64,000 bases of DNA, from contig CAWCPV010000002.1 in the NCBI GenBank assembly GCA_963797555.1, positions 205,561-269,560 on the forward strand, written 5' to 3'. Source of the stretch: an uncultured Gammaproteobacteria bacterium (lineage in GTDB: Bacteria > Pseudomonadota > Gammaproteobacteria > CAWCPV01). The notes under the pieces are model-generated. The model was not told the DNA's origin. It searched no databases and was given only the letters and a program-made list of their open reading frames with translations. The position numbers were made by a program, and so were the translations under genes. This document shows, one piece after another, positions 25,534 to 47,140 of the stretch. How positions within the stretch are numbered: the stretch's first letter is position 1; every line of letters starts with the position of its first letter.

Positions 25534-25541
25534 AGGCAGCG

Positions 25542-27381
<1,840 letters not shown>

Positions 27382-27637: not shown

Positions 27638-29011
27638 ACTGTAATCCCTTCTTCATCAGGTCTCCGTTCGAACGATGTGTTCACGCACGATGGGCGGGCG
27701 GTATCGTCTTAATCCCTTCTTCATCAGGTCTCCGTTCGAACCCGGTTTTGTCATGGCAAGTCGATGCGGCCAACGTGTCTTAATCCCTTCTTCATCAGGT
27801 CTCCGTTCGAACCAGTGAAGGCGAAGGGTGCACAGAGTGTGCACCTGTCTTAATCCCTTCTTCATCAGGTCTCCGTTCGAACACGAAGGTAGCGATCCGA
27901 CGTTGGAGCAATATGCGTCTTAATCCCTTCTTCATCAGGTCTCCGTTCGAACGGGTTTATCCCCGGCTCGCTGTTGACCGGCCCACGCGTCTTAATCCCT
28001 TCTTCATCAGGTCTCCGTTCGAACAGCGAGTCTGGCATCGGCATCCACCGATTGTACTCGTCTTAATCCCTTCTTCATCAGGTCTCCGTTCGAACACAGA
28101 ACTGAGTGGAGATGAAGCGCATCCTGCCGTCTTAATCCCTTCTTCATCAGGTCTCCGTTCGAACAATCGACGATGCACGACGTACAGATCTGGTAGCGTG
28201 TGTCTTAATCCCTTCTTCATCAGGTCTCCGTTCGAACTTCAACGATCAGCGTCCGATCTGTGATACACGTCTGCTGTCTTAATCCCTTCTTCATCAGGTC
28301 TCCGTTCGAACCTACTGCATGAGCGGTACGTCAGGTGGCGTGGCAGTGTCTTAATCCCTTCTTCATCAGGTCTCCGTTCGAACTTGCACAGCGCTAACGG
28401 CGAGTCACGACTCTACATGAGGTCTTAATCCCTTCTTCATCAGGTCTCCGTTCGAACCTGTAATCCGCGTGGGATTGACCATCAGTCTCGTCTTAATCCC
28501 TTCTTCATCAGGTCTCCGTTCGAACGCTCATGACGCTGCGGCATGAGACTGCACGCCTATGTCTTAATCCCTTCTTCATCAGGTCTCCGTTCGAACGTAA
28601 TTGTCAATTGCAACGGAGGATAACCGAAGGTCTTAATCCCTTCTTCATCAGGTCTCCGTTCGAACTCCTATGGCGTGCGGCACAGAGGCAAATGGCCGAG
28701 TCTTAATCCCTTCTTCATCAGGTCTCCGTTCGAACAAATACATGGAATGGGTCAATGACGAAGTACTGGTCTTAATCCCTTCTTCATCAGGTCTCCGTTC
28801 GAACTACAATAGGCGACATTGCAAGGAAGGTAAGGGTCTTAATCCCTTCTTCATCAGGTCTCCGTTCGAACATAGCGTATGTGGTACAATCCTGTCCGCA
28901 TCCTAGTCTTAATCCCTTCTTCATCAGGTCTCCGTTCGAACCGCGTTCTGCGAGTGTCTATACGATACCGTTCCAGTCTTAATCCCTTCTTCATCAGGTC
29001 TCCGTTCGAAC
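27638..29011 (-). CRISPR. CRISPR array, 20 repeats and 19 spacers
   Basis: 36-bp repeat GTCTTAATCCCTTCTTCATCAGGTCTCCGTTCGAAC on +, spacers 31-38 nt. The leftmost repeat is degenerate (trailer), so transcription is inferred on -, giving GTTCGAACGGAGACCTGATGAAGAAGGGATTAAGAC with an ATTAAGAC 5' tag and the leader to the right near cas2. Confidence 0.98.
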
Positions 29012-29084
29012 TGCTCGGCCCAAAAACGCCCGCTGGAGCGAGGGCTTATCAGCACCCTTGACACAAAACCGCCGACTCGCAAAG

Positions 29085-29441
29085 TCAACCTCGTCCATCG
29101 GGCTTCGCCTCCTTCCGCTCGACAACCTTAACCCTCTCACCCGCCCGGATCAAGGCGTCGCGAGAGGGTCCGCCCAGCAGGTAAACGTCCTCGGGCAGGG
29201 TGGCCTCGCCGAGCTGCGTCCATTCCGGGTCTTCGGGCAAGGGGTAGATGCGGACATCGTCCTCCCGTTGGTCGATCAGGTCTCGCAGGTCGTCCACCAG
29301 GCGCTCGACGCCGGCGCGCGTCAGATGGGCCACGAATACCGAGTACTGAACGTGCACGGCGCGCCGCCTGAGGTGGGCATGCACCCAGCGCAAGCGCCGG
29401 TCGTCCCGGATGTCGTAAGCGACGATGTAGGCGCGCCTCAA
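29085..29441 (-). CDS. cas2: Cas2 (copy A)
   Basis: YIVAYDIRDDRRL..VQYSVF..DDVRIYPL. Confidence 0.92.
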   Translation of the reverse strand: MRRAYIVAYDIRDDRRLRWVHAHLRRRAVHVQYSVFVAHLTRAGVERLVDDLRDLIDQREDDVRIYPLPEDPEWTQLGEATLPEDVYLLGGPSRDALIRAGERVKVVERKEAKPDGRG

Positions 29442-30193
29442 GGGTCGAGCCTCCAGAGCCCCTGCAGCAGGCGGCGCAGGGTACGGTCCAGAGGCTCCTC
29501 CAGCCTGCGCTGGTAGTGGCCCGCCAGGGACTCCAGGTCATCGCCGCCCGGAGGGGAACGCAGCACGCGGCCGCGGAGCGGCCACGACATCAGCCGAGTC
29601 AGCTCGCGGGCAAGGTTGATCCCGTTGCGCTGACCGAGCGCAAGCTGCGGTACGATACCGGCGCGCTCCAGCACCTCCAGGATCTGGGCGGCAAGCAGTG
29701 AGCGCAAACGCCCCAGGCATTTCCGGCTGGCCTCGCGCCCCACCCGGATGGCGACCGCGCGGTCGAGCCGGGGACCGACTTCCCCCGGCCTGAGGTCGCT
29801 CAAGGGCCAGCGCAGCGCCAGGTGGAGGTTCAGGATCATCCGCCGTTCCTGGGCGCGGAACCAGTCGTTCCAGCGCTCGCGCCAGTTCGGGCCGGACAGG
29901 AAGGCGTCGAGGTGCGCCTGAAGCCCGGCCACGTCGTCCGCCCGGCCGACGCACACCCCGCAGACGGCCCCTTCGGGGTCCAGGAAGATCACCGGGACTC
30001 GGGCGTCCAGGCAGGCGAGCAGGGCGTCGCCGTCCCAGGACACCGAGCGCCGGCTGATGATCCGGGCGAGCCATCCCAGCGGATACCAGCGGGCGGCCCG
30101 CTCCGGCCGGGCGACTCGGAGCGCCGGTCCGTCCCGCGACACCCTCAGCTCGCCATCGGGATCAAGATAGAGGACTTTCCGAATCGGAGTCAT
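29438..30193 (-). CDS. Divergent Cas1-like protein, probably inactive
   Basis: The N-terminus resembles the Cas1 beta domain (VLYLD..LRVSRDGPALRV..YPLGWLARII..ALLACLDARVPVIFLD..G). The helical part is shortened and lacks a recognisable catalytic His motif. Confidence 0.65.
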   Translation of the reverse strand: MTPIRKVLYLDPDGELRVSRDGPALRVARPERAARWYPLGWLARIISRRSVSWDGDALLACLDARVPVIFLDPEGAVCGVCVGRADDVAGLQAHLDAFLSGPNWRERWNDWFRAQERRMILNLHLALRWPLSDLRPGEVGPRLDRAVAIRVGREASRKCLGRLRSLLAAQILEVLERAGIVPQLALGQRNGINLARELTRLMSWPLRGRVLRSPPGGDDLESLAGHYQRRLEEPLDRTLRRLLQGLWRLDP

Positions 30194-31144
30194 CCAGCAC
30201 CTCCACTGGAGCGGCGGCCCGCAGCGCCTTGGCGAGCCGCAGCGACGCGCGGCGCAACGCCCGCCGCCAGGGCCCGGAGAACCGCTCGTAGGCGGGGTAG
30301 AAGCGTCCGCGCCCCTCCTTGTTCAACAGGCACGCGCCCTTGTCGTCGACGAAGTGGTGCTCGCGCAGTGCCCGGTCGCGAAACAGCGTCCACACCCAGC
30401 GATCGGCGTGCGGGCGCAGAGGTTCGAGCAAGTCGGAGGCCATCGACTCGCGCCCGAAGGCCGGGCGGTGGAAAAAGCCGATGTACGGGTCCATGCCGGC
30501 CCCATAGGCCGCCCTACCGCCTCGAAGTGCAGCAGCGTGTAGGTGAGGGACAGGCACGCGTTGACCGGATCGCGGGGCGGACGGCGGTTGCGCCCCCTGA
30601 ACGCGAGGCTGGGTGGAAACACCGACGCCAAGGCCTCGAAGTAGGCAGCGGCCCCAGCCCCTTCCAGGCCGCGCAAGGTGTCCGGGTCGCGTGTCTCCCG
30701 CACCGCTTGCCCCAGGCGCTCCAGCCGCTCGGCGCCGTTCAGCAGCGCGCGCCGCTGGTCGGGTCGGCGCTCCAGCGCGGCGAGCAGCACCCGGCGCTGG
30801 CCGCCCAGCTTGTGCGCAACCAGACGAGCGCTCCAGGCCCCGCACCAGTCCCGGTCGGTGACCCGCTGGAACTGCGCCAGGCGAACCCGCAGATCGTTGT
30901 GGGGCCGGCCCAGCACGATCGCCACGCGCCGGCCTTGGCGCGGACTGAGGACGAGCACGGCGGTGCCGTTCTCGGCGAGCGCCCCCAGCACGCCCGTGTC
31001 CAGGGTCGTCCGGGCATGGATGACGACGCGATCGAGCAGGGCGAGGGGCACGTCCCGCACCGCGACGCCGTCGAGCCTGAGGCGCAGGCGCCCACCCGCC
31101 AGCCCCAGGGTCAGGTCCTTGCGGTCGATGTAGAGCGTGCTCAC
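30162..31144 (-). CDS. cas1: Cas1, frameshifted near 30515
   Basis: TLYIDRK, LRGLEGAGAAAYF, FRGRNRRPPRDPVNACLSLTYTLL, then in another frame GMDPYIGFFH..SMASDLLEPLRP. Confidence 0.9.
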
Positions 31145-31155
31145 GAGAGCGTCCC

Positions 31156-31440
31156 TCAGCCCTCGTAGAAGAACGGCGGATCGACGGGCGCGACCGCTAC
31201 TCCCAGCGTACGGACCGGCATCCTGGGATCGAGGCGCACCACGAAGAAGCGGTCCACGCGCTCGTCCATGATCTGAGCCACGCAGACGAGCAGCTCGGCG
31301 CGTTCCGCCGGGGTCAGAAAGCACTCGTACACCGACTTCTGTCCGCCCGCGGCGTGGGCGCGCACCACCTCCATCACCGCCGTCAGGCGTTGCGGCGAGC
31401 GGATGTCGTAGGCAGCCAGATACAGATTGCGCTCGGTCAC
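31156..31440 (-). CDS. cas2: Cas2 (copy B)
   Basis: GTG start after a CAGGA RBS-like site; LYLAAYDIRSPQRL..GGQKSVYEC. Confidence 0.88.
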   Translation of the reverse strand: MTERNLYLAAYDIRSPQRLTAVMEVVRAHAAGGQKSVYECFLTPAERAELLVCVAQIMDERVDRFFVVRLDPRMPVRTLGVAVAPVDPPFFYEG

Positions 31441-31519
31441 TCCTGGTCTCCGTGCATTGGCGGATCGGTTCAGTGCCACGGAAGAAATGTAGCCGCAGGG
31501 TCGCGAGAACGTGCGTCCG

Positions 31520-31529
31520 GCAAGCTTGC
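31520..31529 (-). promoter_or_regulatory. Palindrome GCAAGCTTGC upstream of the cas2-cas1 module
   Basis: gccc-GCAAGCTTGC on the minus strand, 80 bp before cas2B; a TACATT -10-like hexamer lies about 29 bp downstream. Confidence 0.55.
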
Positions 31530-31581
31530 GGGCAGACCGACGGCCAGACGAATGGGCCAAGCGCCGCGCTGAAGCGCGCGG

Positions 31582-31981
31582 CTAGCGAGCATCGGGCCTG
31601 GCGGCGACCCAAGCCTGCAACCGCATGCGCAGCCGAGTCAGCTCGTCGCCCGACACCAGCCGGATATCGGAGAGCGCCGCCCGCTCGCAGTGCCGCGGGC
31701 CCGCCGTAAACCAGCTCACCAGCATGGGTCGCGCAACCAGGCCGCCGACCTTGCGGATGCTGTCCAGCTTGTAGAGCATTTGGGTCAGCTCGTCGGCATC
31801 CTCTTCGTCCCCGCGCGGGCGAGCGGTCTTGCACTCGACGATGCACAGGTGGTTGCGCGCCAGGAACGCGACATCCAGCTCATTCTGTACGGGCGGAGAT
31901 CCCGAGTCCGCGCGCACCTGGAGGTTCGCTGCCACTTCGTCGATACCCCACGCCGCTGCGTTCAGGGAGAGGGTGGCGGCC
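31582..31981 (-). pseudogene. Duplicated 3' fragment of the Card1/DUF1887 gene
   Basis: NELDVAFLARNHLCIVECKT... nearly identical to the C-terminus of 38529-39698; the 5' two-thirds is missing. Confidence 0.88.
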
Positions 31982-32074
31982 TGGATGGATGAGGCGCGAA
32001 AAACATCCGCGTCAGCGGAGCCCGCAACGTCGAGACGCTTTCAAGCCCGGAACGGGGTGATTGGCCATCGGAGT

Positions 32075-34036
32075 TCACGAAACGCCCGGGTACGCGTTTC
32101 GCAGATCAAAGGCTTTTCTCCAATAAGCCCGCTCTCGGGCCTCGTAATACTCCGGGCCGCGTTTGCGTATTACCCGCTCAGGCAATCTTTCGGCAATAGC
32201 AAGGCGCTTGCTCGTATCCGACGCCGTGTCAGAATGCGTCAGATCACCGAGCGCCTCCGCTTCTTCCATGGTGGGATTGTTGACCAGCCTAAAAAACGGG
32301 TCAGCCCATCGCTGCGAAACGAATGGATCAATACCGTATTCGAGGATGAGGGGCAGAACCGTATCGATGAACTGAAACGCTCCTTTCTGCACCCGTTGTG
32401 CAAGCTCCCGGACTTTCTCGTCGTCTTTGTTGTCTTCGAGGATCGGCGCCACGTTACCGTCCTTCTCCTCGTATCCGAGCGTCGTTCCGTGGGGTGCCAT
32501 GAGCGCAAATTCGAGCAACTCCACGCCTCCGTTGATAAGACTTTCCGTGAGCGACCATGGATCGTTTTCATTGACAAGATAACCCCAAAACACATTGCGC
32601 GGAAGATAGTTCTGCGGAAGCATGCCGAAGGTTCCGAGGTAGTAGCCGTGCACGTGAAAATCCGTCCGCACGAGCTGCAGGAGCCGCGAAAACCCCCCCT
32701 GCATGTTTCCGGTCCAGCCGATGTCCACGATCCCGACCCGTCGGACTCCTTGTGCAAGATCGGCGACGTAACGGGTCGGGAGGGGGCGCTTTCTCTTTGC
32801 CTCGAGCAGAATGTTGCTCCAGAGCGAATTAAGGAGACGAAACATTCGTATGTCGCTGTTCGGAACGATTTCGTCGACGAAGGCATATCCTGCCCGCTTG
32901 ATCTCCTGAAGATAATGGTGGGGATTCATGCCCAGTTTCCGCAAATGAAACCCGACGGTTCGCGTGGCCCGCCCGCTGAAAAGGTGCCAGACCCGGTCGA
33001 TGGGAAAATCGACGAAGCTCGGGAGAAGAATCGCTGCCCGCGAGAAATATGCGTATTTGAGCTCCACGTCCGCACCGAGCAGATCGCCGTACCCTTGGAA
33101 GACCTGGTACGGAAGGTAGGCATCCCGCGCAAAAAAAAGCATGCGTTCAACCCTGTGCTGTCTTGCAAGCCGCGTTGTCCAGAGAATATTCCCGAGAAAA
33201 AGCGGTCCGAAAACCTGCAGGCCAATATCTTCCCAGAATTCAGGTTCCTCCTCCATAATCCGCTTCCGTATCGAACCCATCATCAGCGACCAGATGTGAT
33301 TGTCCGCACCCGGTTTTTCCTGCGGCATACGGAGCTGCGGTTCGGCGTTATGCTTAAGGTAATTGAAGAATTCGGCGTGCAAGCCGGCGGCACGGGGAAC
33401 AATCACATCTGCATGTTCATTGTCGCCAAAGTGCACAACATCGCCCGGTGTCGCCGAAAACCTCCGCAAAACTTCTTCATACATCGAGCCTTGGTGTTTG
33501 CTCTTCCGCAGTTCCCATGACACCAGGAGGGTATGCGGTCCCGCATAGCCGCACACGGATAGAAGCTTTGCGATGAAACGGGAGGGAAGATACATGTCCG
33601 AACACAAGACGACCTCGCAGGCGCCCTGTGCCGCAACCCGATAGACCTCCAGCATGAGCGGGTTCGGATGGCAAAGCCGCTCTTCAAGCTCGAGTTCCAG
33701 GTTCTTCAGGTAACCGCGTTGCTCCTCCGTCAAATGGAGGATGTCGGCCAATACTTCATAGATGTCGTCGATTCCCACTTCCGGCGTGCCGGCCGACGCC
33801 ATCAACCGCACGCGCGCCTCTGCTTCCGCTTCACTCCTCTTTTGTGCGAAATTGCACGCTATTCCAGGGTTGTAAAGGCCGAATTCCCGGTGCTTCAGCA
33901 GCGCCCCGGCCACGTCGAACACATCCGTCGGCCGGTGCACGGTACGATGGATAAGTGTATCGAACACGTCGAAGGAGACGACCTTCGCCGCGATTATTCG
34001 CGTTGTGTAGTCCTCAAGCAGTTGTTCGCTGTTCAT
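32075..34036 (-). CDS. HAD-superfamily hydrolase of the type found in polysaccharide clusters
   Basis: VSFDVFDTLIHR, LCSDMYLP, HFGDNEHADV, FFARDAY, VDIGWTGNMQ. The start may instead be 34090. Confidence 0.85.
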   Translation of the reverse strand: MNSEQLLEDYTTRIIAAKVVSFDVFDTLIHRTVHRPTDVFDVAGALLKHREFGLYNPGIACNFAQKRSEAEAEARVRLMASAGTPEVGIDDIYEVLADILHLTEEQRGYLKNLELELEERLCHPNPLMLEVYRVAAQGACEVVLCSDMYLPSRFIAKLLSVCGYAGPHTLLVSWELRKSKHQGSMYEEVLRRFSATPGDVVHFGDNEHADVIVPRAAGLHAEFFNYLKHNAEPQLRMPQEKPGADNHIWSLMMGSIRKRIMEEEPEFWEDIGLQVFGPLFLGNILWTTRLARQHRVERMLFFARDAYLPYQVFQGYGDLLGADVELKYAYFSRAAILLPSFVDFPIDRVWHLFSGRATRTVGFHLRKLGMNPHHYLQEIKRAGYAFVDEIVPNSDIRMFRLLNSLWSNILLEAKRKRPLPTRYVADLAQGVRRVGIVDIGWTGNMQGGFSRLLQLVRTDFHVHGYYLGTFGMLPQNYLPRNVFWGYLVNENDPWSLTESLINGGVELLEFALMAPHGTTLGYEEKDGNVAPILEDNKDDEKVRELAQRVQKGAFQFIDTVLPLILEYGIDPFVSQRWADPFFRLVNNPTMEEAEALGDLTHSDTASDTSKRLAIAERLPERVIRKRGPEYYEARERAYWRKAFDLRNAYPGVS

Positions 34037-34067
34037 CGCCGGAGTTCTGAAGTCAGCGGAGAGGCGT

Positions 34068-35132
34068 TCACCGGCCGTGCCGTGTGACAAACCACGATTT
34101 CACCTTGCGGACGGCAGCCCCGGGCCCCCGGGAAAACAGAACGCGAAAAAATTGCTTGGCATAATGCCGTTGCTTTCCCGACGCCAGCCACAACCGTGCC
34201 AGTTGCACCGAGCGTTTCCAGCGGCGCGAGAACGTGCCCAACTCCCTCTCCGTCGTCCGCGTAGAACCGAACGAAGATGGTTGTCCCTCGGATTTCCGGA
34301 TGGTCTGCTGGAGATCGTGGATGGCCTGCCGCACGGTGACGTGAGCGCCGACACCGGTTCCGTGGGCGTGGATATCCCGTCTCAGCCACTCGTTCTTCAA
34401 CACTGTGGCATAAAGGTCGTGACGGCTGCGATCAGCAATAATCGTGTTGCCGTATACGGTCTGGTCGGCAACGCGGTGGTGATAGAAGGCCAGAAACTGA
34501 GGGATGATAAAAATATCATAGCGGCACATGAAACGGACATTGAAGTCCCAGTCACCCAGGACGGGAAGCTCCGGCCGAAAGAATCCCACCTCCCGAGCTG
34601 CGTCGTACCGGAAGAGAAACTGTATGGGTGCGAACTGGTTTTCGGTGAGAATCCCGTCGAGGGACACAAGGCCCCTCTTATCGGAGGTGCGATACGGCTC
34701 GGTCCAGTCGATGTGGACTACATTGCCCTCAATGCGCTCAAAGACGGCGTTGGCGAGCGTTACCACTCCTGCGACTGTGGGAAGCGCCTTCCGTATCTCC
34801 TCAAGCTCCGCCACCGCAACCGTGAGAAATTCCGGCGCCCAGGTGTCGTCGTCGTCGTGAATCGCCAAATACTGCGTCTGGACGGTATCTACGCCTTTGT
34901 TGCTCGCGGCCTCCATCCCGAGAGACTCGGGGTTATGGATAACTGAGATCCGGCCCCGTGACAGTGATGCGTAATGCTTAACGAGGCGGTCCACGTCAGC
35001 CGGGTCTCCCCCATCGTTGACGATAACCATGCGCCAGTCGTTATAACTTTGGTTGACGACACTTGCAATGGCCCGCGTGAGGAGAACGGGCCGATCCTTT
35101 GTGCGCGTGATAATGCCGACCGATGCCTCCAT
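34068..35132 (-). CDS. GT2-family glycosyltransferase
   Basis: IITRTKDRP, IVNDGG, AIHDDDDTW, LGDWDFNVR. Confidence 0.88.
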   Translation of the reverse strand: MEASVGIITRTKDRPVLLTRAIASVVNQSYNDWRMVIVNDGGDPADVDRLVKHYASLSRGRISVIHNPESLGMEAASNKGVDTVQTQYLAIHDDDDTWAPEFLTVAVAELEEIRKALPTVAGVVTLANAVFERIEGNVVHIDWTEPYRTSDKRGLVSLDGILTENQFAPIQFLFRYDAAREVGFFRPELPVLGDWDFNVRFMCRYDIFIIPQFLAFYHHRVADQTVYGNTIIADRSRHDLYATVLKNEWLRRDIHAHGTGVGAHVTVRQAIHDLQQTIRKSEGQPSSFGSTRTTERELGTFSRRWKRSVQLARLWLASGKQRHYAKQFFRVLFSRGPGAAVRKVKSWFVTRHGR

Positions 35133-35400
35133 TTCAGATGAATTGGTCTCCGTGGTTTCGATATACTGTGACCCCGAGAAGCCTGCCTGAAATCCGCAAC
35201 GACGGTTCCGGGATAGTGCCCCCATCGCGGCGCGAGGCAGGCTGCTCTTGGGACCGGAAAAGTCTCACGGCGTCGCCGAAGAAACCGCCCACATGGTCAA
35301 GGTGCGGGCTGACCGACATGGGCAGGCCCTTCCGCCCCGCTGCGGGCGAAAAATTGCCACGCGCGAAATATCGTGTCGAGGGAGCGAGAAATCCTTGTTC

Positions 35401-36624
35401 TCACGCGGGTGTCAGGGTATGCGTAAGAGTTTCCTGAGCCTGCGGAACGGCTGGAGAATGCCGTAGCCCAGTCGATAACTCGACGTTCTGGAATGCTTGG
35501 ATGAGTTCGGCATCCTTTGCCATGAGGGCTTGTTGAAGTGCCATGAGGGCTTCTTGAAGCCGTGCCAGAGCGGCGTCCTTTTCCACGTTAAAGCCATGAA
35601 GTTGTCGAATCGAATCTTCCCGCTGCCACAGCATGTCGCGAAAGACGTTTCTTTCCGCGTCCCGTTCGTCGCGCATGCAAGCGATGCGTTCGTCTTTCAC
35701 GGTGAGCTGGCCGAGGAGTTTCTCGATGGCCATATCCTTTTCCCACAAAATATCCCGCACGCGGCGGAGTTCTTCCGCCTCTTTCCGGCCAAGGCGCGCG
35801 CTCTCTTCAGCCGTGTGCGCTTCCACTTTGCGAAGCTGACGCTCCAGAGCCTTGTACCGGGGAAGGTCGGAGGACGCCATAAAGCTGGGATACCACGCCA
35901 GAAGCACATCGAACGTTTCCCGGTTCGGTGCCACGCGGTCTTCACGGATCGTATTGCCACCGTGGAGTCGGTAGCGCAGGAGCCGTTGCTCCCGAAGGAA
36001 CAGAAGTCCGTGAGGCTGGTCGGCGAGAAACCGAAAAATGAACTCGTAGTCGAGGACATAGCGGTAGTCGTTGAAGCGTCCGATGCTGTCAAAGACATCC
36101 CGCCGCACGAGAAAGTTGGAGGTTGTCAGGAGGATGTTTCCCGCAAGAAGAGCCTGGACGATATCGCCGGTCTCGACGTAAATCCGCTTCAGATCGTCAT
36201 ACCAGGAAAGCCACCAGTGAGCTTTGTCGCGAATGATGGTTCCGTCGGCGTCGACGAGTTCCACATCGGAGGCGACGAACGTCGCACCCGTTTCATTGGC
36301 CGCATGCATCAGGCGTTCGAGGCGGTTCGGTGCAAAGACATCGTCGGAGTTGAGGATCGCTATGAAGGCCCCGCGGCTTTGTCCGATGCCTTCATTCAGT
36401 GTTGCGGCTGCGCCCCGGTTCTGTTCGTGATGCATACGCCGCACCCGACGGTCGTCAAACCCGTCCACGATCTCGCGGGTGGCGTCCGTGGACGCGTCAT
36501 CGATCACGATGAGCTCAAGGTCCTCGACGGTCTGGGAAAGCGCGCTCCGGATCGCCGTTTCCACGTACCTTTCGTGGTTATATGCAGGGATAACGATGCT
36601 GACGGCCGGGTTGTTCGTCATCAC
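35401..36624 (-). CDS. GT2-family glycosyltransferase with a C-terminal coiled coil (possible frameshift near 35480)
   Basis: VSIVIPAYNH, IIDDASTD, ILNSDD, DYEF. An alternative-frame tail SSYRLGYGILQPFRRLRK (to 35412) looks like the natural end. Confidence 0.85.
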   Translation of the reverse strand: MMTNNPAVSIVIPAYNHERYVETAIRSALSQTVEDLELIVIDDASTDATREIVDGFDDRRVRRMHHEQNRGAAATLNEGIGQSRGAFIAILNSDDVFAPNRLERLMHAANETGATFVASDVELVDADGTIIRDKAHWWLSWYDDLKRIYVETGDIVQALLAGNILLTTSNFLVRRDVFDSIGRFNDYRYVLDYEFIFRFLADQPHGLLFLREQRLLRYRLHGGNTIREDRVAPNRETFDVLLAWYPSFMASSDLPRYKALERQLRKVEAHTAEESARLGRKEAEELRRVRDILWEKDMAIEKLLGQLTVKDERIACMRDERDAERNVFRDMLWQREDSIRQLHGFNVEKDAALARLQEALMALQQALMAKDAELIQAFQNVELSTGLRHSPAVPQAQETLTHTLTPA

Positions 36625-36701
36625 ATGTGGTCACGCATTGTTTGCGGCATCTCTCACCGCCCGTCAGCGCTTTATACCTGCGCGGGGTACACACAGAGCG
36701 T

Positions 36702-36820
36702 TAGTACTGTCTCGAACTTACCTACACGTTTGGCCAACGCCGCGATCAATAGGGTTCGATGCACAATCAATGCATTGCGAGCTCGATTAAGCGTAAAGCG
36801 ATTTCTGAGACACTACACTA
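36702..36820 (+). mobile_element. Short IS630-derived remnant or MITE
   Basis: The right end encodes ..KAISETLH* and ends CACTACACTAG, like the IS630 end at 14969. The left end TAGTACTGTCTC is an imperfect IR. Confidence 0.5.
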
Positions 36821-36829
36821 GCACGGAGA

Positions 36830-37080
36830 CCATTCTGAACGATAGGCGGCAGCGGCCCAAAGGGAATATAAGTTCTGCATGAGAAGAATCTGGCGCGAAA
36901 ACGGCTTTCCGAATCGCTCGCCGGGTATGGCCGGGTCCGGCTGCCCGTCGGCAGAAAAGAACGGTGTTCCCCGGCCCCGTAGACGACATCGGTGGGGGGT
37001 CGCAAGCTTCTTCGATCGAGGGTGTGAGGGCCTTCTTGTGTATAGACATCGTCGTCGTGGAGGAAGGTGATCCATTCAAA
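36830..37080 (-). pseudogene. Glycosyltransferase (GT2-like) fragment cut at the oriIS junction
   Basis: EWITFLHDDDVY...DVVYG begins right at the oriIS. Confidence 0.5.
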
Positions 37081-37490
37081 GTGTAGGAAATTCAAACGCA
37101 CCTGGCCGCACCTGGCGTAGGGGAAGCTTAGATCCTGTGGCGGGGAGCGGTCAAGGTTCTGGGGCTCGGCGCAGTGGGGCAGATCCGCAGGTGCATTTGA
37201 CTTCCGCAGGCTGGTCGAGCCCGCCGCAGGAGGGTAGCTGGTGGTTGCGTTGGGGGCTTCCCGGCGCGCTGCGCGAACGCTGCCGTTCCCGTTGCGGACA
37301 AGTTCCGTTGCTGGGCATGCTAGCTCAGGGTCTGGTCGAATTCGGCGGCTGTGAAAGGGTGACGCCCATTCGGGCGGGCCTCGCGCGGGGGGCTGCGCGC
37401 GGCGGCTGGGTCGGTTCCCCGAGTTGCCGGAGAATGCGGGTGACCGAGGCCGTATGGGTCATGAAGGCGATGCTCCGAAGCGACCGGGGT
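37081..37490 (-). mobile_element. ISCR/IS91-family remnant: transposase C-terminus plus oriIS
   Basis: IAFMTHTASVTRILRQLGEPTQPPRAAP resembles IS91-like transposase C-termini. GCGTTTGAATTTCCTACAC (37099-37081, minus) is 2 mismatches from the ISCR oriIS consensus as I recall it (GCGTTTGAACTTCCTATAC). Confidence 0.75.
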
Positions 37491-38148
37491 TGATGCGACA
37501 TGCCCGTTGGTCGTGGTGGGCCGCACTCGACGCTGCTGCGTACCGGTAGCCAGTACCATTGGCGGTCCCGCATGGCGGCGGCAATGGCGAGCGTGGCCTC
37601 AAGCACTGTCGCGGCGCAGACCACCGGCGCTCCAGCATGTCGTCGGCGTCGAAGATGCTGATGATGAACGTCACCAACCGGAGCTTGCGGGGGAGCTTGC
37701 CACGGGCGTTGCGGGCTCGTAGGACTTCGGCGTGCCTGTTGTAACACGACGGGCAGAGCCTCCCGCTGATAAGCCGCCGTGCTTGGCGTCCACACCGGGA
37801 GCAGCAGCGCTCGACCAGGCGTCGAAGCTCGTGCGCTCCAGGGGTCTGCGGCATCATGACGACGCCGGCATGCCGCACGCCAATGGCACAGCTACGGCAG
37901 AAGCGGAGGGGATGGCCCACATCCGCTTTTTCGCGTCTCGCGCAGCGCCATCGAGCGGCGCAGGCTTCGGGACTGAGTTTGAGGTGCCCGGGTGTCTTGG
38001 GGCATGTGAAAAGAGCGGATGGCGAGGCGGACGAGGGTACAGCGGAAGACACAGTAGAAGGCACAGCGGCAGGCTGAAGCATCGGCAACCCCCCGTGTTG
38101 GTTATCGGGTGCTGTCGTCATACTCCATCCGAAAGCCAGGGGGCGCAA
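37459..38148 (-). CDS. Cys-rich hypothetical protein, possibly of phage or mobile-element origin
   Basis: FTCP..CAARW..CRSCAIG..CSRCG..LCPSCYNR: multiple CxxC pairs. The start may be the ATG near 38082. Confidence 0.55.
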   Translation of the reverse strand: MRPLAFGWSMTTAPDNQHGGLPMLQPAAVPSTVSSAVPSSASPSALFTCPKTPGHLKLSPEACAARWRCARREKADVGHPLRFCRSCAIGVRHAGVVMMPQTPGAHELRRLVERCCSRCGRQARRLISGRLCPSCYNRHAEVLRARNARGKLPRKLRLVTFIISIFDADDMLERRWSAPRQCLRPRSPLPPPCGTANGTGYRYAAASSAAHHDQRACRINPGRFGASPS

Positions 38149-38405
38149 TGGCAGGGTGAAAACAGCGGTCCTTCACCTCCTGACACCTGTTCAGCGGGTT
38201 TTGGCTGCTTGCCTGCTGGTGGAACCGTTATCGCACCCACCGCCCACGGGGCTATGCTTCGGGACTTCTCTCGCATCCCCGATCCGGTAGCCCATCGCAT
38301 CGTAGCACCGAAGCCGACCGCGAGACTTTGCGCCGGGTCTGAGTATTGGCGGCAGCTTGGTTTTTGGCGAAGGGTTCTGTGTTGGCTCGGGTAAGTCGTG
38401 CGAAC

Positions 38406-38928
38406 TGGCGGATCGGTTCAGTGCGCGGAAGAAATGTAGCCGCAGGGTCTCGAGAACGTGCGTCCGGCAAGCTTGCGGGCAGACCGACGGCCAGAGGAAT
38501 GGGCCAAGCGCCGCGCTGAAGCGTGCGGCTAGCGAGCATCGGGCCTGGCGGCGACCCAAGCCTGCAAACGCATGCGCAGCCGAGTCAGCTCCTCGCCCGA
38601 CACCAGCCGGATATCGGAGAGCGCCGCGCGCTCGCGGTGCCGTGGACCGGCCGTAAACCAGCTCACCAGCATGGGTCGCGCAACCAGGCCCCCGACCTTG
38701 CGGATGCTGTCCAGCTTGTAGAGCATTTGGGTCAGCTCGTCGGCATCGTCGTCGTCCCCGCGCGGGCGGGCGGTCTTGCACTCGACGATGCACAGGTGGT
38801 TGCGCGCCAGGAACGCGACGTCCAGCTCATTCTGTACGGGCGGAGATCCCGAGTCCGCGCGCACCTGGAGGTTCGCTGCCACTTCGTCGATACCCCACGC
38901 CGCTGCGTTCAGGGAGAGGGTGGCGGCC
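38406..38928. repeat. ~520-bp direct repeat, copy 2
   Basis: Partner of 31458-31981; includes GCAAGCTTGC at 38467-38476. Confidence 0.93.
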
Positions 38929-39698
38929 ACATGCTGCTCGAGCCAGCCGCCGTTCGCGAAGCTGCGTCTCTGCTCGTCGGGGAACCGTACGCTGCCGCTG
39001 CGAGCGTCGAAGGCCAGGACACCGGCCTGGTCCAGCCGCCGGAGCAGCGTCAGCACCCGGCGGTCCCGAATCTGTCCGGAGTTGAGGGTCACCGGGCCGC
39101 CGGTGTTGCGGGCCTGCGCGGCCGCCCAGTTGAGCGTCCGCAAGGCCGGGTCCTGAGAGGCCGCGAGCTCGGTGAGCTCCGCCGTCAGCGCCTCGTCCCG
39201 ATACGCGCTCCCCGTCTCCCGCGACACTTCTTGATAGCCATATGCCCTCAGGTAGTCGCGGATGCTCAGGTGGCTCTCCAGCTCGAACCCGGCCCGCTCG
39301 TGCGGGTGCAGCCAGGTCAGCGTGTTGTCGGTCTCCACGTAGAGGGCGGGCAGCCCGCGGCGGCGGAACACCTCGTAGGCGGCGATGGACATGGGCTTCT
39401 GCCCGCCCGTGGCGTTCAGCACCGCCCCCTCGGCGCCGACCTCGGCCAGACACCGCTGCACGTCCTCGCGCACGCGGGCGAGGTTCAAGCGATCGATGAG
39501 CGGCCAGAGCGTCGGCTGCACGCCGTGGCCTTCGAGCACGGCGCAGAGGCGCTCGGCGCGCTGGGACATCTCGGGGCTGGTGAACAGCACCACCTGGCGG
39601 GGCCGCAAGCGGCTGTCCAACACCGCAGCGAGGTTGGGAATGGGCTGCCCGGAGACGATACAGAAATGGGTCGTGAAGGGATGCAGCGTCTCAGCCAA
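38529..39698 (-). CDS. Card1/Can2-like CARF plus restriction-endonuclease-fold effector (DUF1887)
   Basis: CIVSGQPIPNL and NATGGQKPMS (CARF); NGGWLEQHV and NELDVAF..IVECKT (PD-D/ExK). Confidence 0.85.
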   Translation of the reverse strand: MAETLHPFTTHFCIVSGQPIPNLAAVLDSRLRPRQVVLFTSPEMSQRAERLCAVLEGHGVQPTLWPLIDRLNLARVREDVQRCLAEVGAEGAVLNATGGQKPMSIAAYEVFRRRGLPALYVETDNTLTWLHPHERAGFELESHLSIRDYLRAYGYQEVSRETGSAYRDEALTAELTELAASQDPALRTLNWAAAQARNTGGPVTLNSGQIRDRRVLTLLRRLDQAGVLAFDARSGSVRFPDEQRRSFANGGWLEQHVAATLSLNAAAWGIDEVAANLQVRADSGSPPVQNELDVAFLARNHLCIVECKTARPRGDDDDADELTQMLYKLDSIRKVGGLVARPMLVSWFTAGPRHRERAALSDIRLVSGEELTRLRMRLQAWVAARPDAR

Positions 39699-40965
39699 TG
39701 TAGGCGTCCGGAAGCTGCGGGAAGCCTGTGACGTGAGCCGCCTTCATCTCTGCGGCCAGTGCGGGCACGAATATCTCCTCCGCCCAGCTCCGCATCCGTT
39801 CCCACTGGGCAGGGCCGATGGGGCGGAAACCGTGCGCGAGGATGGAGGCGTTACGCACGAGCAACTGATCGAGGAGTGCATCGTGGCGTTCGGCGAAGAA
39901 GCGCGCCGCGGGTCCGCCCGTATGCTGCTGGACGAGCTGCCAGGCGGCGAAGAGCCCCGCCTGGAGTTTTCCCTCCCGGTTCACTGTCGCCAGCCCTTCC
40001 GGGTCCTTGTCCGCCGGCAGGTCCGCCGTGTCCAGCCCGGCACGTGCGCGCAGCACCCACTGGGCAGTCCATTCCAGGACCCGGTACAGGCGCGCCACCG
40101 CGTCGTCGTAGCGCCCCGCGCGAGCGCGCCGCTCCGCGTTGAGCCACAGGTCCCAGATGCGCAGCGGCTCGCGCCGGGGCGATTCGTCGCCGGTCAAGAC
40201 CTCGAGCGCGCCGAAGTAAGCGCCGAGCGGCCCGGCAATGACGGGCGCATACGGACGCAAGCGGCGCAGCGCTTCCGTATGGTCGAAGCGGTCCCACGCG
40301 GCGAGGGCTGCGCTCAGGTCCCGAGCGCGGCTCAGCTCCGCGGCGAGCGGTACGTCGCGAGGGGCGGCGACAGCCTCCAGCGCCTCCGCCGCTTCGTCGT
40401 AAGCGAAGCGTCGCCAAGGGGCCAGGGCTGCGGCCATGGCGCGGCGGACGCGGATGCGCTCCACCGAGGCGAGGACCGCGTGCTCGGTGCCGTCCAGCAC
40501 GCGCACGAGGTCTCCCCGGTTGCCCGTCACGAGCTGCAGATCGACGCCGCCCGCTTCCAGCGCCGCGAGCGCCAGCGCCGCGGTCATCGTTTTGGTGCCG
40601 CCCGTGTAGTCCGCGGCCAACCGGGCCCCCGGAAAGCGTTCGCGGACACGCTCGATGTCTCGTTGGAGGAGGTGGAACGCGTCGTCCAAACCGTCCGCCG
40701 GCACTTCCAGCACCTCGTACGCCCCTTCGGCCAGACCGGCCTGCGCGGGAATGTTGGGCAGGCTGGGCGCGGGGTCGTCGCGGCTCGCCTTGATGACGTT
40801 GCCCTTGCCGAGCACCTGCGTGGCCGACCCCAATCGGCCCGTGCCGGGGTCCCGTCCGGTGCAGACGAAAATCACGTGCGCCGGCCGCAGCGAGCGAATG
40901 GCCGTCACAATGGGCTCGTGGGAGCCGCCGACGGTGCAGAACAGGATGACCTGGCTCTCGCTCAT
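39691..40965 (-). CDS. TIGR02710-like CARF-HEPN (Csm6-like) CRISPR effector
   Basis: FCTVGGSHEPIV and DYTGGTKTMTAAL (CARF); YDDAVARLYR; HEPN-like RNASILAHG. Confidence 0.85.
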   Translation of the reverse strand: MSESQVILFCTVGGSHEPIVTAIRSLRPAHVIFVCTGRDPGTGRLGSATQVLGKGNVIKASRDDPAPSLPNIPAQAGLAEGAYEVLEVPADGLDDAFHLLQRDIERVRERFPGARLAADYTGGTKTMTAALALAALEAGGVDLQLVTGNRGDLVRVLDGTEHAVLASVERIRVRRAMAAALAPWRRFAYDEAAEALEAVAAPRDVPLAAELSRARDLSAALAAWDRFDHTEALRRLRPYAPVIAGPLGAYFGALEVLTGDESPRREPLRIWDLWLNAERRARAGRYDDAVARLYRVLEWTAQWVLRARAGLDTADLPADKDPEGLATVNREGKLQAGLFAAWQLVQQHTGGPAARFFAERHDALLDQLLVRNASILAHGFRPIGPAQWERMRSWAEEIFVPALAAEMKAAHVTGFPQLPDAYIG

Positions 40966-41576
40966 GGTCGAGACAGCGGGACCCAGCCGAGGGAGCCGAG
41001 GTCCACGGCGACCTCCGGGAATGCCTTCGGGCGTGCGGCGCCTGCGCGGTAGTAATCCACGTGCCGGTACTCGCCGGCCTCGGGGCCGTGGTAGACATCG
41101 AGCCGCTTCTCCGGCAGGTCGAACAGCCAGACCTCGGGGATACCGCGGCGGGCGTAGAGCGGAACTTTCACCTCGCGGTCGTACCGCCCAGTGGTGTCGG
41201 CCACTTCGACGAGCAGCAGGACATCTTCGGGGCCGGGATGGGCGGAGCGGTAAAAATCGTCCCTGAACTTGAGCACGGCGAGGTCGGGCTGGGGCTCGGA
41301 GTGATCGTCGAGCCGAACCGGGTCCTGGACACTCACCACGGCCCGGTCGCGCACCCCGACCGCGAGCAGGTGGTTCAGCAGCTTGACGATGCCCGTATGC
41401 TCGCTGCCTAGCGGCGCCATGTCGACCAGCGCCCCCTCGATCAGCTCGACGCGCTCGCCCGGCTTGAAGATACCGGCCTCGCCCATGCGCTGATACACCT
41501 CCACCGTAATCATGCGCCGGGCTGGCAACAGCGCCTCCTCGACCCGGTGCTCGTCAGCCGCAACGCTCATGACCAT
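40962..41576 (-). CDS. Uma2-family (DUF820) endonuclease-fold protein
   Basis: ERVELIEG, SEPQPDLAV, LLVEVADT, KVPLYARRGIPEVW. Confidence 0.88.
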   Translation of the reverse strand: MVMSVAADEHRVEEALLPARRMITVEVYQRMGEAGIFKPGERVELIEGALVDMAPLGSEHTGIVKLLNHLLAVGVRDRAVVSVQDPVRLDDHSEPQPDLAVLKFRDDFYRSAHPGPEDVLLLVEVADTTGRYDREVKVPLYARRGIPEVWLFDLPEKRLDVYHGPEAGEYRHVDYYRAGAARPKAFPEVAVDLGSLGWVPLSRP

Positions 41577-41776
41577 ACCTCACGCCTCATCCCGGCAGCA
41601 GAATCCTATCCGAGCCCCCGATCCTTGCCCGGAATCGGCGCCGAGCGATTGAAACACCCTCAGGGAGCGCTCGTGGCCCTCGTCCTCCGCAGAGCTCCTG
41701 GCGGCGCTCTCCTGCCAGACGTTAGCACGCTTCATCGTTCTGTGCACCGAAGGCCCCCAAGGAACGCCGTCGACAA

Positions 41777-42193
41777 TCAGCGCGGCCTCTGCGCCAGCGC
41801 CCAATCGAAGAACCGCCGGTACAGCGCAAGCGCCGGCTCCACCGCCGCGATCACGCGATCGAGGTCGATCACGTCGTAGAGGTGCGTGAGAACGTTGCGC
41901 ATACCGCAGGCGTCGACCAGCGGGTCGGCTAGGTCCCGCGGCATGGCGTCAAGCTGCGCCAGGGCCAGAAAGACTTCCCGATAGCTCGACGCGAGGCCGA
42001 AACCGCGCGCTTTGAGCACCTGCAAGCCGATGTCCGCGGCCGACTCGCACAAGAGCTGCAGCAACCGCTCGATGGCGTAGTGCTGGCGCCGGCGTTCCTC
42101 AGGAGCCAGCCGCCCGTAGGGCTCCAGATCCATCAGAAACTGGCGCAGGAAGCCGAGCTTGCGCTCGAACACCTCGCGGCTAGGCGGGCTCAT
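41777..42193 (-). CDS. HEPN (DUF86/HepT-like) RNase toxin
   Basis: GMRNVLTHLY matches Rx4HxY; AIERLLQLLCE. Confidence 0.88.
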   Translation of the reverse strand: MSPPSREVFERKLGFLRQFLMDLEPYGRLAPEERRRQHYAIERLLQLLCESAADIGLQVLKARGFGLASSYREVFLALAQLDAMPRDLADPLVDACGMRNVLTHLYDVIDLDRVIAAVEPALALYRRFFDWALAQRPR

Positions 42194-42572
42194 CGAGCAT
42201 CTCGCTGCTGGCGCGCCGGAACTTCTCGGTGTCTGCGTAGAGGAAGAATGCCCGGTCCTGCTCCCGCGAGAAAAGTCCTTCCTCGGCTTCGTGAAGACAC
42301 ACGCCCCGCTGGAAGACCTGGAAGCGCGCGGTGGGCGACAATCCTTCAGTCAGTAGCAGGAGGTCCACCCCGCGTTGCGGGAACAGGGGCTCGAGCGCCG
42401 CCACCCATTTGCCCTGTTCGAAGAGCGTCGGCACAGCGCTGGGCATCACCGCCAGGTCAACGTCCCTGCCGACGGCGCCTGCGGCGCTGGAGCCGAAAAG
42501 CACCACCAGCCGCCAGCCGAACCGTTGGGCGAGGTCCGCGAGCTGCCGCTGCGTTTCAGGGACAATATGCAT
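42180..42572 (-). CDS. Minimal nucleotidyltransferase (MntA-like) antitoxin
   Basis: VLFGSSAAG..DVDLAV..VDLLLL; overlaps the HEPN gene. Confidence 0.85.
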   Translation of the reverse strand: MHIVPETQRQLADLAQRFGWRLVVLFGSSAAGAVGRDVDLAVMPSAVPTLFEQGKWVAALEPLFPQRGVDLLLLTEGLSPTARFQVFQRGVCLHEAEEGLFSREQDRAFFLYADTEKFRRASSEMLDEPA

Positions 42573-42744
42573 CAGCCGACCCTCGCGCGTCCCGACCAAG
42601 ACTTCCGCCGAGCTCCGTTCCAAGTCTACCCGCCAGACCTCGGGGGCCCCGTGGCAGCGGCGTCTTTTCAGCATCAGGGTACTATGTCTGCCGCCGATGC
42701 CCAATGCGGCCCACGGGACTCATCGTCGCGAGCACCTCCCCCGG

Positions 42745-43557
42745 TCAGCTCGGAGCGGTGCTTTCAATACCTCGGCCACCAGGGAGCGCCCGCCCCGCCC
42801 GACGGTACAAGGCCGCGATCACCTCCCGCATGTCCGCCGGCAGGCGCCGCCAGCCTTCGGCAGCAATGTCATCGGGGATCCCGAAGCGGGCCTCGGCGAT
42901 TCCCCCGGCGATGGCGGCCAGGGTATCGCTGTCGCCGCCCAGGGAAATGGCGTTGCGGATGGCGTCCTCGTAGCCGGCCGCCTCCAGGGCGCAGATCACG
43001 GCTTCGGGCACGGTGCCCTGGCAGGTCTCGTCGAACCGGTAGCCTGGGCGGATGCCGGCCACGGTGCGGTCGAGGTCATAGCGGTAGGCGCCGCTCACGG
43101 CCCGGCGGATGGCGGAGGCGGACTCCCCGTGGAGCGCCATGAAGATCGCCGTGGCGGTGGCCGCGGCCCCCTTCAGCCCCTCGGGGTGGTCGTGGGTCAC
43201 CTCCGTGACGCTCCGGGCGAACCCCAGGGTCTCTTCCAGGGTGTGCCCCAGCAGACCGGCGGGCGAGACGCGCATGGCCGCTCCGTTGCCGTAGCTGCCG
43301 TAGGGCGCCGTCTCCGCCGAGAAGAGCCAGCGGGAGAAGCGGCCGCCCCACCCCGAGTTGGGATAGCGCCGGCCCCATTCTTTGAATGCCTGCCCCGGCG
43401 GGCGGTCGTTGATCAGGGCGTCCGCCACCGCCACCGTGAGCACGCTGTCGTCGGTGAAGAATGCGTCGCGGCGCAGGAAGGGCTCGAAGTCCTTGGCCTT
43501 GTACCCACGAAATTCGTAGACCGACCCGGCGATGTCGCCTATAACGGCTCCAAGCAT
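42745..43557 (-). CDS. ADP-ribosylglycohydrolase
   Basis: MLGAVIGDIAGS, FTDDSVLT, SYGNGAAMRVSP, GGDSDTLAAIAG. Confidence 0.92.
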   Translation of the reverse strand: MLGAVIGDIAGSVYEFRGYKAKDFEPFLRRDAFFTDDSVLTVAVADALINDRPPGQAFKEWGRRYPNSGWGGRFSRWLFSAETAPYGSYGNGAAMRVSPAGLLGHTLEETLGFARSVTEVTHDHPEGLKGAAATATAIFMALHGESASAIRRAVSGAYRYDLDRTVAGIRPGYRFDETCQGTVPEAVICALEAAGYEDAIRNAISLGGDSDTLAAIAGGIAEARFGIPDDIAAEGWRRLPADMREVIAALYRRAGRALPGGRGIESTAPS

Positions 43558-43793
43558 AGCGTTCTCCTTCGTGGAATGCCCGACCGGGCGCGGCAGCCGC
43601 CCGCCACCGGCCGTCGTCAGTCGTTGCTGCGGTCCTCCATCAGGCTTCCTCCCACCGGCTCCAGCGCCGGGACGCTCGACGGCGTCGCGGCGAAGTTACC
43701 GCTCACTGCTTGCTCCCGGCTGCTGGCTTCCCCGTCGCCTTCGTGAGATCGCCTTCGCCGTCCAGCGGATGTGGTGAGTGCGCCATACCGGCA

Positions 43794-45179: not shown

Positions 45180-45193
45180 TTGTTCAAGACCTC

Positions 45194-46643: not shown

Positions 46644-46837
46644 AAGACCTCCTGAATATCCTCACCTCGGCCTACGCCGCGAGCACGCAAGCCGCCTGTC
46701 CGGCCCTTTATTACCACAGTCGCTGCATCAATCCGTGAGGCAGTGCCGGTGGCCCAGCGTCAGCGATTGTGCTCCGCACGCAGCCGGTGATGCCTGGAAA
46801 TTCCACCTTAGCGGCATTGTTGCGCTCCGGTCGCTGC

Positions 46838-46847
46838 GCAAGCTTGC
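46838..46847 (-). promoter_or_regulatory. Palindrome GCAAGCTTGC upstream of the DUF2130-to-Card1 gene string (as it was before IS66 inserted)
   Basis: gccc-GCAAGCTTGC on the minus strand; a TAAGGT -10-like hexamer lies about 28 bp downstream. Confidence 0.5.
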
Positions 46848-46879
46848 GGGCAAGGCCACCACGGCCTCGCTGCTAATGA

Positions 46880-47140
46880 CGTTGGCTCTCGGGCGTCGGG
46901 TCGTAGAACTCAGGGTTGCCCTCGTGAGGCACCGGGACGATGACGTGCGACAGTCGGTCCTGCGGGCGCCCATACCGCAACAGGGATTAGCCCGCGTAGA
47001 ATCCCATGGATTGACCTCGCAGGCGATGGAAAGCGGGAGCGCGCTGGTTCGGTCCGCCGGGAGGCGCCGAACCCAGTCCACGATGAGGTCAGCGGCGAGC
47101 GTGTCGTCATCCGGCGCCCGGACATCCGAGAGCGCCTCTT
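46880..47140 (-). pseudogene. Eroded second copy of an NE0113-family CARF gene
   Basis: ALSDVRAPDDDTLAADLIVDWVRRL..SALPLSIA, then after a frameshift MGFYAG*SLLRYGRPQDRLSHVIV..PHEGNPEFYDPTPES; colinear with the 18718 protein. Confidence 0.8.

Follow-up and report, generated by a model that had tools for sequence, protein, structure and literature searches.

Polysaccharide genes and an IS91/ISCR-family remnant between two copies of a Card1 3′ end in a type III-B CRISPR-Cas locus

The window analysed here is a 64-kb stretch (64,000 nucleotides of contig CAWCPV010000002.1, assembly GCA_963797555.1) of chromosomal DNA from a high-GC bacterium, with an overall guanine-plus-cytosine (GC) content of 0.657. 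It carries a chromosomal type III-B CRISPR-Cas locus, in which an insert of 6,424 bp (31982-38405), bounded by direct repeats, separates the gene of a Card1-type CARF nuclease from cas2. Read on the minus strand, the region presents the full Card1 gene and a spacer, a segment of unrelated mobile-element DNA, a remnant of an insertion sequence (IS) of the IS91/ISCR family ending in an oriIS-type motif, a set of polysaccharide genes of lower GC content, a partial second copy of the Card1 3′ end with its spacer, and then cas2. An earlier note on this DNA, made from its letters alone, had recognized here the order of complex class 1 integrons (anchor, IS up to oriIS, foreign genes, partial anchor), and this order is confirmed by the repeat alignment, the Pfam matches and the end motif. 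The locus is a decayed single example of this architecture in a new setting. The ISCR-type mechanism that its anatomy suggests is plausible and partly supported.

The limits of the direct repeat were obtained from a repeat search, which found a 300-nt core at 96% identity, and from gapped and global alignments with the flanks, which extended this core. The two copies, 31458-31981 (copy A, 524 bp) and 38406-38928 (copy B, 523 bp), both considered on the minus strand, are 96.8% identical. They differ by 16 substitutions and one 1-bp indel, 17 differences in all; the longest identical block is 108 bp and the others are 56 bp or shorter. Beyond these limits the flanks are unrelated in the alignment, and the junctions have no extra shared bases. 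The outer ends of the repeats fall exactly at 31458 and 38928, the coordinates first proposed for the structure. Each copy consists of 400 bp from the 3′ end of Card1 and the 123 bp of spacer that follow, and the insert together with one copy makes a 6.9-kb unit.

Copy B runs on into the 5′ part of Card1, which gives a full-length gene of 389 amino acids (aa) (38529-39698, minus strand; Pfam CARF_Card1, E 4.9e-13; Card1_endonuc, E 3.3e-27). Copy A runs on into cas2 (31156-31560, minus strand, assigned by Pfam), the first of two such genes in the locus. It holds a 5′-truncated Card1 (31582-31981), and the annotated open reading frame (ORF) within it (31582-31935, minus strand) matches positions 32-135 of the 136 of Card1_endonuc (E 7.2e-22). 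By these domain matches, the full copy has both the CARF sensor and the endonuclease domains of a putative cA4-activated nuclease of Card1 type, and the partial copy endonuclease positions only. The succession described in the earlier note, a complete Card1 with its spacer and, further on, a partial second 3′ end and spacer leading into cas2, is thus what Pfam and the alignment find. The partial gene is an open ORF of 117 aa with its own GTG start, which retains most of the endonuclease domain without the CARF sensor.

The IS91/ISCR-family remnant covers about 420 bp (37081-37500, minus strand) and consists of the last ~60 codons of a transposase (37495-37320), about 240 bp of 3′ non-coding DNA, a 10-bp tandem duplication and a terminal motif. 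A phmmer search with the 80-aa tail translation against 1.84 billion representatives (E ≤ 1e-3) returned 11 matches: a near-self sequence at 99%, seven short C-terminal fragments that are 47–61% identical over the tail motif, and three long proteins (P0002, P0003 and P0005) matched in many short stretches. Two of the tail fragments, used as tblastn queries, led to the C-termini of transposases annotated as IS91-family or ISPps1-family; 80 and 18 plasmid records were reached, with a best E of 3e-18 and 2e-5. Three such full-length comparison transposases carry the Zn_Tnp_IS91 and Y2_Tnp domains. Aligned directly with two transposases, the window tail corresponds to residues 407-442 of 471 and 454-484 of 526, with 42% identity (pairwise E 1e-6 and 2e-7). 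In a local tblastn the tail is spread over three reading frames, with its stop at 37320-37322, and is therefore a decayed pseudogene. It has no Pfam or NCBIfam family at threshold, and blastn of 37040-38410 against plasmids gave no match. The homology to IS91/ISCR elements at 37081-37490, on which the earlier note had made its interpretation depend, is nevertheless present, and the terminal motif adds to it. A metagenomic protein fragment (P0007) reads past its stop and still matches the translation of the non-coding positions 37251-37320 (minus strand) of the window; this IS subgroup, its 3′ non-coding region conserved, is hence present elsewhere too.

The end of the remnant was compared with the ends of four real IS91-family loci, namely three plasmid-borne copies (L032, L033 and L034) and a truncated copy on a Thiodictyon plasmid (L031). 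All four have a conserved end located 180–220 bp after the transposase stop, and similarity between the elements stops there. The window shares this oriIS-type motif at 37081-37099 (minus strand), where it ends 239 bp after the stop of the tail. The motif has three mismatches to a 17-nt consensus drawn from the four loci, which is not a published oriIS consensus; with up to three mismatches, this consensus occurs once in the 64-kb window for 0.09 expected. A degenerate pattern of the motif was found in 0 of 30 other loci. In addition, GC content falls from 0.669 to 0.572 at the very base where the motif ends. Tail homology and the end conserved in 4/4 loci therefore uphold the proposal that a transposase tail ends in an oriIS-like motif at 37081. 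The closest end sequence is that of the Thiodictyon remnant (about 3500-3530), which likewise has a 10-bp tandem duplication just before the motif. The duplication of the window lies at 37097-37116 (minus strand), directly before the motif, in a place where one would look for subterminal palindromes, and could be a protein-binding site of this IS subgroup. The promoter scan gave no outward promoter near oriIS on the minus strand. For ISCR1, a 232-bp oriIS-containing region with variable DNA on that side is described (PMC6218425).

On the other side of the remnant, between it and copy B, lies segment B, ~0.9 kb of unrelated mobile-element DNA (37501-38405, minus strand). Its zinc-ribbon ORF (37459-38148, minus strand, 229 aa) is rich in Cys pairs and has a homologous core at 37648-37992, as seen by tblastn and pairwise comparison. 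Six plasmid records were matched by tblastn. The core is homologous to the N-terminal part of a hypothetical protein, 412 aa long, that small plasmids of enterobacteria encode (pairwise E 4e-12), and also to a 231-aa ORF of a Rhodovastum plasmid carrying phage genes (tblastn E 1e-10). Its nearest neighbours in Atlas are phage hypothetical proteins (score 0.95, low recognition value). No Pfam or NCBIfam family was reached at threshold, PHROGs was empty, and the PDB sequence search gave a chance-level match only. The Cys-rich ORF pointed out earlier is thus real, with homologues on plasmids, and belongs to no named family. Its match to Zn_Tnp_IS91 (E 0.092, 13.2 bits) is below the cut-off of 26.3 bits. 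The first four minus-strand bases of segment B are GTTC, which is the cleavage tetranucleotide reported for terIS of IS801 and IS1294 (PMC13181058). Because of this start and of the weak Zn_Tnp_IS91 likeness (E 0.092; pairwise E 0.31), we considered whether segment B could be the 5′ portion of this IS, with terIS and a zinc domain, shortened by an internal deletion. This was rejected as the main reading, since the ORF is clearly homologous to plasmid proteins without IS91 domains and the DNA upstream of it is unlike terIS regions. A frameshifted run-on of the zinc-ribbon gene into the tail ORF had been suspected by eye; tblastn gave no support for it.

The polysaccharide cassette occupies 31982-37080 and has a GC content of 0.572, as compared to 0.669 in the adjoining remnant (37081-37500) and 0.698–0.708 in the flanking cas genes. 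It contains two intact genes of family 2 glycosyltransferases (GT2), one of 407 aa (35401-36624, minus strand; Glycos_transf_2, E 7.2e-34, 117.6 bits) and one of 385 aa (34068-35225, minus strand; E 5.4e-22, 78.9 bits), both above the Pfam cut-off of 23.3 bits. Partial NCBIfam matches of these genes to polysaccharide GT2 enzymes were all below cut-off. The second gene overlaps by 23 bp an ORF of 671 aa (32075-34090, minus strand), which codes for a ribofuranosyltransferase-like protein with an N-terminal HAD domain (Pfam Hydrolase). These are the GT2, GT2 and HAD genes of visibly lower GC that had been named from the letters, and Pfam and base composition agree with that description. The 671-aa protein, whose database copy (P0021) has 653 aa, aligns nearly over its full length (residues 38-619) with the dual-domain “Ribofuranosyl transferase” of PDB 7shg_A (E 1.7e-12), and also with the middle of the capsule polymerase Bcs3 (E 3.9e-25); identity is low. 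Its closest relatives are 66–75% identical and include Betaproteobacteria and Nitrosomonas records. In more distant ones, fusions with GT2, RgpF or capsule-synthesis domains are seen, and PHROGs was empty for this protein. After this last cassette gene, 25 bp before the junction with copy A, the consensus scan found a terminator-like hairpin with a T run (32006-32019, minus strand), a type of site that is no more numerous in the region than in shuffled sequences.

At its other end the cassette starts, right at the IS end, with a possible 5′-truncated GT2 fragment of 97 aa (36787-37080, minus strand). Its identity comes from Atlas (best score 0.89 to GT2 clusters), which we take as a lead only, and BLASTP against the two GT2 genes of the cassette gave E 10 and 2.0. 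As regards the glycosyltransferase gene said to be cut at oriIS, the stretch does begin at the IS end, and its nature as a gene fragment depends on the weak Atlas lead.

Relatives of Card1 were used to examine the ancestral arrangement. The genome collection contains 28 Card1 loci, 30–41% identical to the window protein (best about 40%), in which Card1 usually adjoins a TIGR02710 gene and lies upstream of cas2-cas1. Card1 is followed by cas2-cas1-cas1like-cas2 in 8 of these 28 distant loci (L003, L009, L014, L015, L016, L018, L020 and L027). Card1 and cas2 are separated by 60 bp in L016, by 0.7–0.9 kb in L020 and L027, and by 2.7 kb in L015; in L003, L009, L014 and L018 they are separated by a CRISPR array whose repeats are of the same family. 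The synteny of these distant relatives supports Card1-cas2 adjacency as the probable ancestral state. No match to the IS tail, to the zinc-ribbon ORF or to any cassette protein occurs in the 28 loci, and the insert is therefore foreign to loci of this type. The array of the window is located past the second cas2, unlike that of L003, L009, L014 and L018, which fills the Card1-cas2 gap, and the array of L003 is broken by ~1.5 kb holding a 443-aa ORF.

The way in which the two copies differ bears on their history. The 132 codons that the copies share show 8 synonymous and 4 non-synonymous differences (pN/pS 0.18), and 5 differences lie in the 123-bp spacer. Under neutral drift of the truncated copy after duplication in place, about 60% of the coding differences would be expected to be non-synonymous. 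Observing at most 4 of 12 has P = 0.04 if one copy was neutral and P = 0.004 if both were. Mostly synonymous differences thus fit poorly with the decay of a dead copy in place. This suggests, modestly given the small sample, that the copies are two alleles, which evolved apart as functional genes in different lineages. The copy-B residues are shared at all four non-synonymous sites by P0017, a full-length Card1 of metagenomic origin that is 96% identical.

Taken together, these observations point to a history in which a foreign polysaccharide cassette with an IS91/ISCR element entered the Card1-cas2 interval as a circle, carrying the 524-bp Card1-3′/spacer segment and integrating by one homologous crossover. 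We give this history an even chance. An IS91-family element would first have settled downstream of a Card1 gene, in the same direction of transcription. Rolling-circle transposition from its oriIS would then have overrun the far end of the element, taking along the spacer and the last 400 bp of Card1. The target would have been a lower-GC polysaccharide locus, 93 bp downstream of the ribofuranosyltransferase-like gene, giving the joint at 31981/31982. In a second read-through, replication would have passed through the transferase-like gene and both GT2 genes before stopping inside the gene beyond them, and a circle would have been closed at oriIS (joint 37080/37081). Recombination of this circle with an intact Card1-spacer would yield full Card1, IS, cassette, partial Card1 and cas2, with both neighbours whole. 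The body of the transposase would have been lost or replaced, and its tail would have decayed, either after this integration or before it.

The three joints of this model (spacer to IS side at 38405/38406, truncated anchor to the far end of the cargo at 31981/31982, and oriIS to the truncated near end of the cargo at 37080/37081) are all found at the predicted places, and a single crossover accounts for the fact that Card1 and the region upstream of cas2 are both intact. The source of these ideas is the model for ISCR1, in which aberrant rolling-circle replication is described as producing circles of captured gene, truncated 3′ conserved segment (3′-CS) and ISCR1 (PMC6834847), and these circles as being rescued by homologous recombination in the 3′-CS (PMC6834847, citing Toleman et al. 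2006). The claim of the earlier note that this mechanism acted here with Card1 as its anchor is thus partly supported: the order of the segments and the junctions agree with it, whereas in the element itself the transposase body and terIS are missing, and segment B was not predicted.

A number of observations weigh against the capture model. Segment B belongs, by its homologies, to a phage/plasmid protein family and not to IS91. It stands where the transposase body and terIS belong, and the joint near 37500 is not explained by the model; a phage/plasmid-type segment in the place of the transposase requires an additional deletion or replacement that is likewise unexplained. The catalytic domain is missing, with no Y2_Tnp in 36787-38148 and no Zn_Tnp_IS91 at the Pfam threshold. 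Recognizable tail homology amounts to ~36 residues in one frame and short stretches in two others, and direct tblastn of the 156-aa tail ORF against plasmids gave no match. No terIS was found, in that nothing resembles the upstream ends of the comparison elements L031-L034. Subterminal palindromes are described for IS91-family ends (PMC13181058); here, folding of 120-nt DNA on both strands gave no significant hairpin at either IS end (z -0.20 to +1.64). On the cargo side, the putative GT2 fragment, which would show that the read-through stopped within a gene, found no support in Pfam, NCBIfam, PHROGs, tblastn against plasmids or a word-index search for longer proteins. The structure is a single instance, and the relatives yielded neither an empty site nor a donor allele or donor locus; a search for longer proteins with the partial Card1, in which no donor allele appeared, returned the Card1 of the window itself (96%) and then proteins at 70%. 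Moreover, at 3 of the 4 non-synonymous sites the fragment is unlike both the close full-length Card1 proteins and the distant P0013 and P0014. Such fragment-specific residues make some decay in place also likely. Since P0017 matches copy B at all four sites and the fragment departs from P0013 and P0014 at three, copy A would be a third allele, one that may itself have decayed to some degree. Finally, ISCR transposition itself is stated in PMC6218425 to be without experimental demonstration as of 2018.

Several of these points would be expected if the IS were a passive relic. Foreign DNA from a plasmid, a phage or another strain, with a dead IS91 stump beside polysaccharide genes, would have gained the Card1-3′/spacer segment by illegitimate joining, and would have entered by a single crossover or, after transformation, by homology-facilitated illegitimate recombination, with rolling-circle transposition taking no part. 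An IS without transposase and terIS and with a frameshifted tail fits such a course, and the phage/plasmid family of segment B makes the insert look like a mosaic of mobile DNA. Other transposase genes are indeed present in the window (IS66, DDE_3/HTH type and an ISAzo13-like fragment). An ordinary IS91-family insertion into a gene would also set oriIS against a truncated target, the target tetranucleotide being described as adjoining oriIS in such insertions (PMC13181058). However, two independent illegitimate joints (31981/31982 and 38405/38406) would have to fall exactly where the ISCR model predicts them, and the position of the Card1 segment on the upstream side of the IS, in the orientation of the IS, is left unexplained. 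We consider this explanation possible but rather doubtful.

An assembly artefact appears improbable to us. The cell would then have had an uninterrupted Card1-spacer-cas2 and, separately, a 6.9-kb circle or a second strain, with a switch of phase inside the repeat. A circle with repeat, segment B, IS and cassette would give the same junctions as the integrated form, the repeat does contain the identical block of 108 bp, and related strains occur in public metagenomes (P0017, 96% identical; P0001, 99%). But the 17 differences are spaced by 108 bp or less, so that ordinary reads should phase the copies. The junction between cassette and partial Card1 has no shared sequence on the cassette side and must therefore exist in a real molecule, and the source contig is long (269,560 bp).

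Duplication of the 524 bp in place upon insertion, as a very long target-site duplication or in a repair-associated way, with later divergence of the copies, is suggested by the direct repeats flanking the insert and by the three sites at which the truncated copy is unlike close and distant relatives, but it is hardly credible in view of the 3.2% divergence with 8 synonymous against 4 non-synonymous differences (P = 0.04 under neutral drift of the truncated copy), and IS91-family elements are described as making no target-site duplications (PMC13181058; PMC3575428). The differences between the copies have been set out above; no mechanism by which an insertion would duplicate 524 bp is known to us.

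With respect to known systems, the closest likeness of the capture model and of the locus is to complex class 1 integrons. Both have the same order, foreign genes on the oriIS side that are not integron cassettes, and a second anchor truncated at its 5′ side; the partial copy starts inside the anchor gene, as the partial second 3′-CS does. The distance from the transposase stop to the IS end is 239 bp here, next to the stretch of 232 bp that holds oriIS in ISCR1 (PMC6218425), and the origin proposed is the same, a rolling-circle-derived circle rescued by homologous recombination (PMC6834847). The differences are as clear. There is no integron backbone (intI1, attI1, qacEdelta1-sul1), and Card1 and cas2 form the flanks. 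In place of qacEdelta1-sul1, the anchor is the gene of an ancillary CRISPR nuclease with its spacer, and the cargo consists of polysaccharide genes, not resistance genes. The IS is a stump of ~420 bp, not a complete ISCR1, with unrelated DNA between anchor and IS, and the case is single and chromosomal, not a recurrent “common region”. Relative to the IS91/ISCR elements L031-L034, the stump matches in its C-terminal transposase motif and terminal sequence, and differs in having no Zn_Tnp_IS91, Y2_Tnp or terIS.

The end product is also that of a Campbell-type single-crossover integration, with direct repeats flanking the insert and intact neighbouring genes. Unlike the capture model, this generic name says nothing about the origin of the circle. 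Nor is a site-specific recombinase involved: the Pfam scan of ORFs in 29–46.6 kb detected neither an integrase nor a sul1-type domain, and the window contains no tRNA gene, the Rfam scan being empty as well. A limited literature search found no prior description of ISCR together with CRISPR-Cas and Card1.

If the capture model holds, the locus matters because the ISCR1 model depends nearly entirely on an architecture that recurs in complex class 1 integrons. An independent case, with another anchor and another cargo, on the chromosome of an environmental high-GC host, would suggest a general process and not a peculiarity of resistance plasmids. The locus shows that unrelated cargo was placed in a CRISPR-Cas locus without breaking its neighbours, which bears on the mixed content of defence islands. 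The practical weight is limited, since the element is dead and the case single. It is a matter of speculation that the repeats allow RecA-dependent excision or amplification, and that the cassette modifies a phage receptor. The most far-reaching form of the idea, in which ISCR-type capture extends beyond integrons and resistance genes and a Card1-anchored surface-glycan module acts as a repeat-flanked switch, excisable or amplifiable, linking receptor modification to CRISPR immunity, strikes us as very improbable; the same goes for the idea that the CARF-less Card1 fragment acts alone or interferes with the full enzyme.

The remainder of the CRISPR-Cas locus lies mainly on the cas2 side of the insert. 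On the minus strand, the first cas2 is followed by cas1, a cas1-like gene, the second cas2 and then, at about 27640-29035, the CRISPR array, with 20 repeats of 36 nt. This adaptation module (29085-31560, minus strand) thus has two cas2 genes, a cas1 and a shorter cas1-like gene of 251 aa with a weak match to the Cas1 N-terminus. cas1 itself (30162-31136, minus strand) is split over two reading frames with a break near 30515-30520; positions 1-202 of Pfam Cas_Cas1 fall in one ORF and 205-282 in another, which may be either a frameshift pseudogene or a sequencing error. Beyond the array are cas6, a Cas_NE0113 gene, cas10/cmr2, cmr3 and RAMP genes (17577-27265, plus strand).

The whole defence region is flanked by glycogen/trehalose genes and recBCD. 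On the far side of Card1 are a CARF gene of the TIGR02710 Csm6 family, Uma2, a HepT/nucleotidyltransferase pair, an ADP-ribosylglycohydrolase, DUF2130 and the IS66 transposase (minus strand). Defence-type and mobile genes, a RES-domain protein included, occupy 40962-48866. On the far side of the cmr genes are the DDE_3/HTH-type transposase gene (13803-14888) and the ISAzo13-like fragment (13320-13778). A 148-nt element with inverted ends is present in two copies (15521-15668 and 51416-51563) that are 99% identical; immediately upstream of the first there is an additional, partial end, while the second overlaps with recB at its 3′ end. In its sequence the element looks like a miniature inverted-repeat transposable element, and its two copies bracket the entire ~36-kb defence region.

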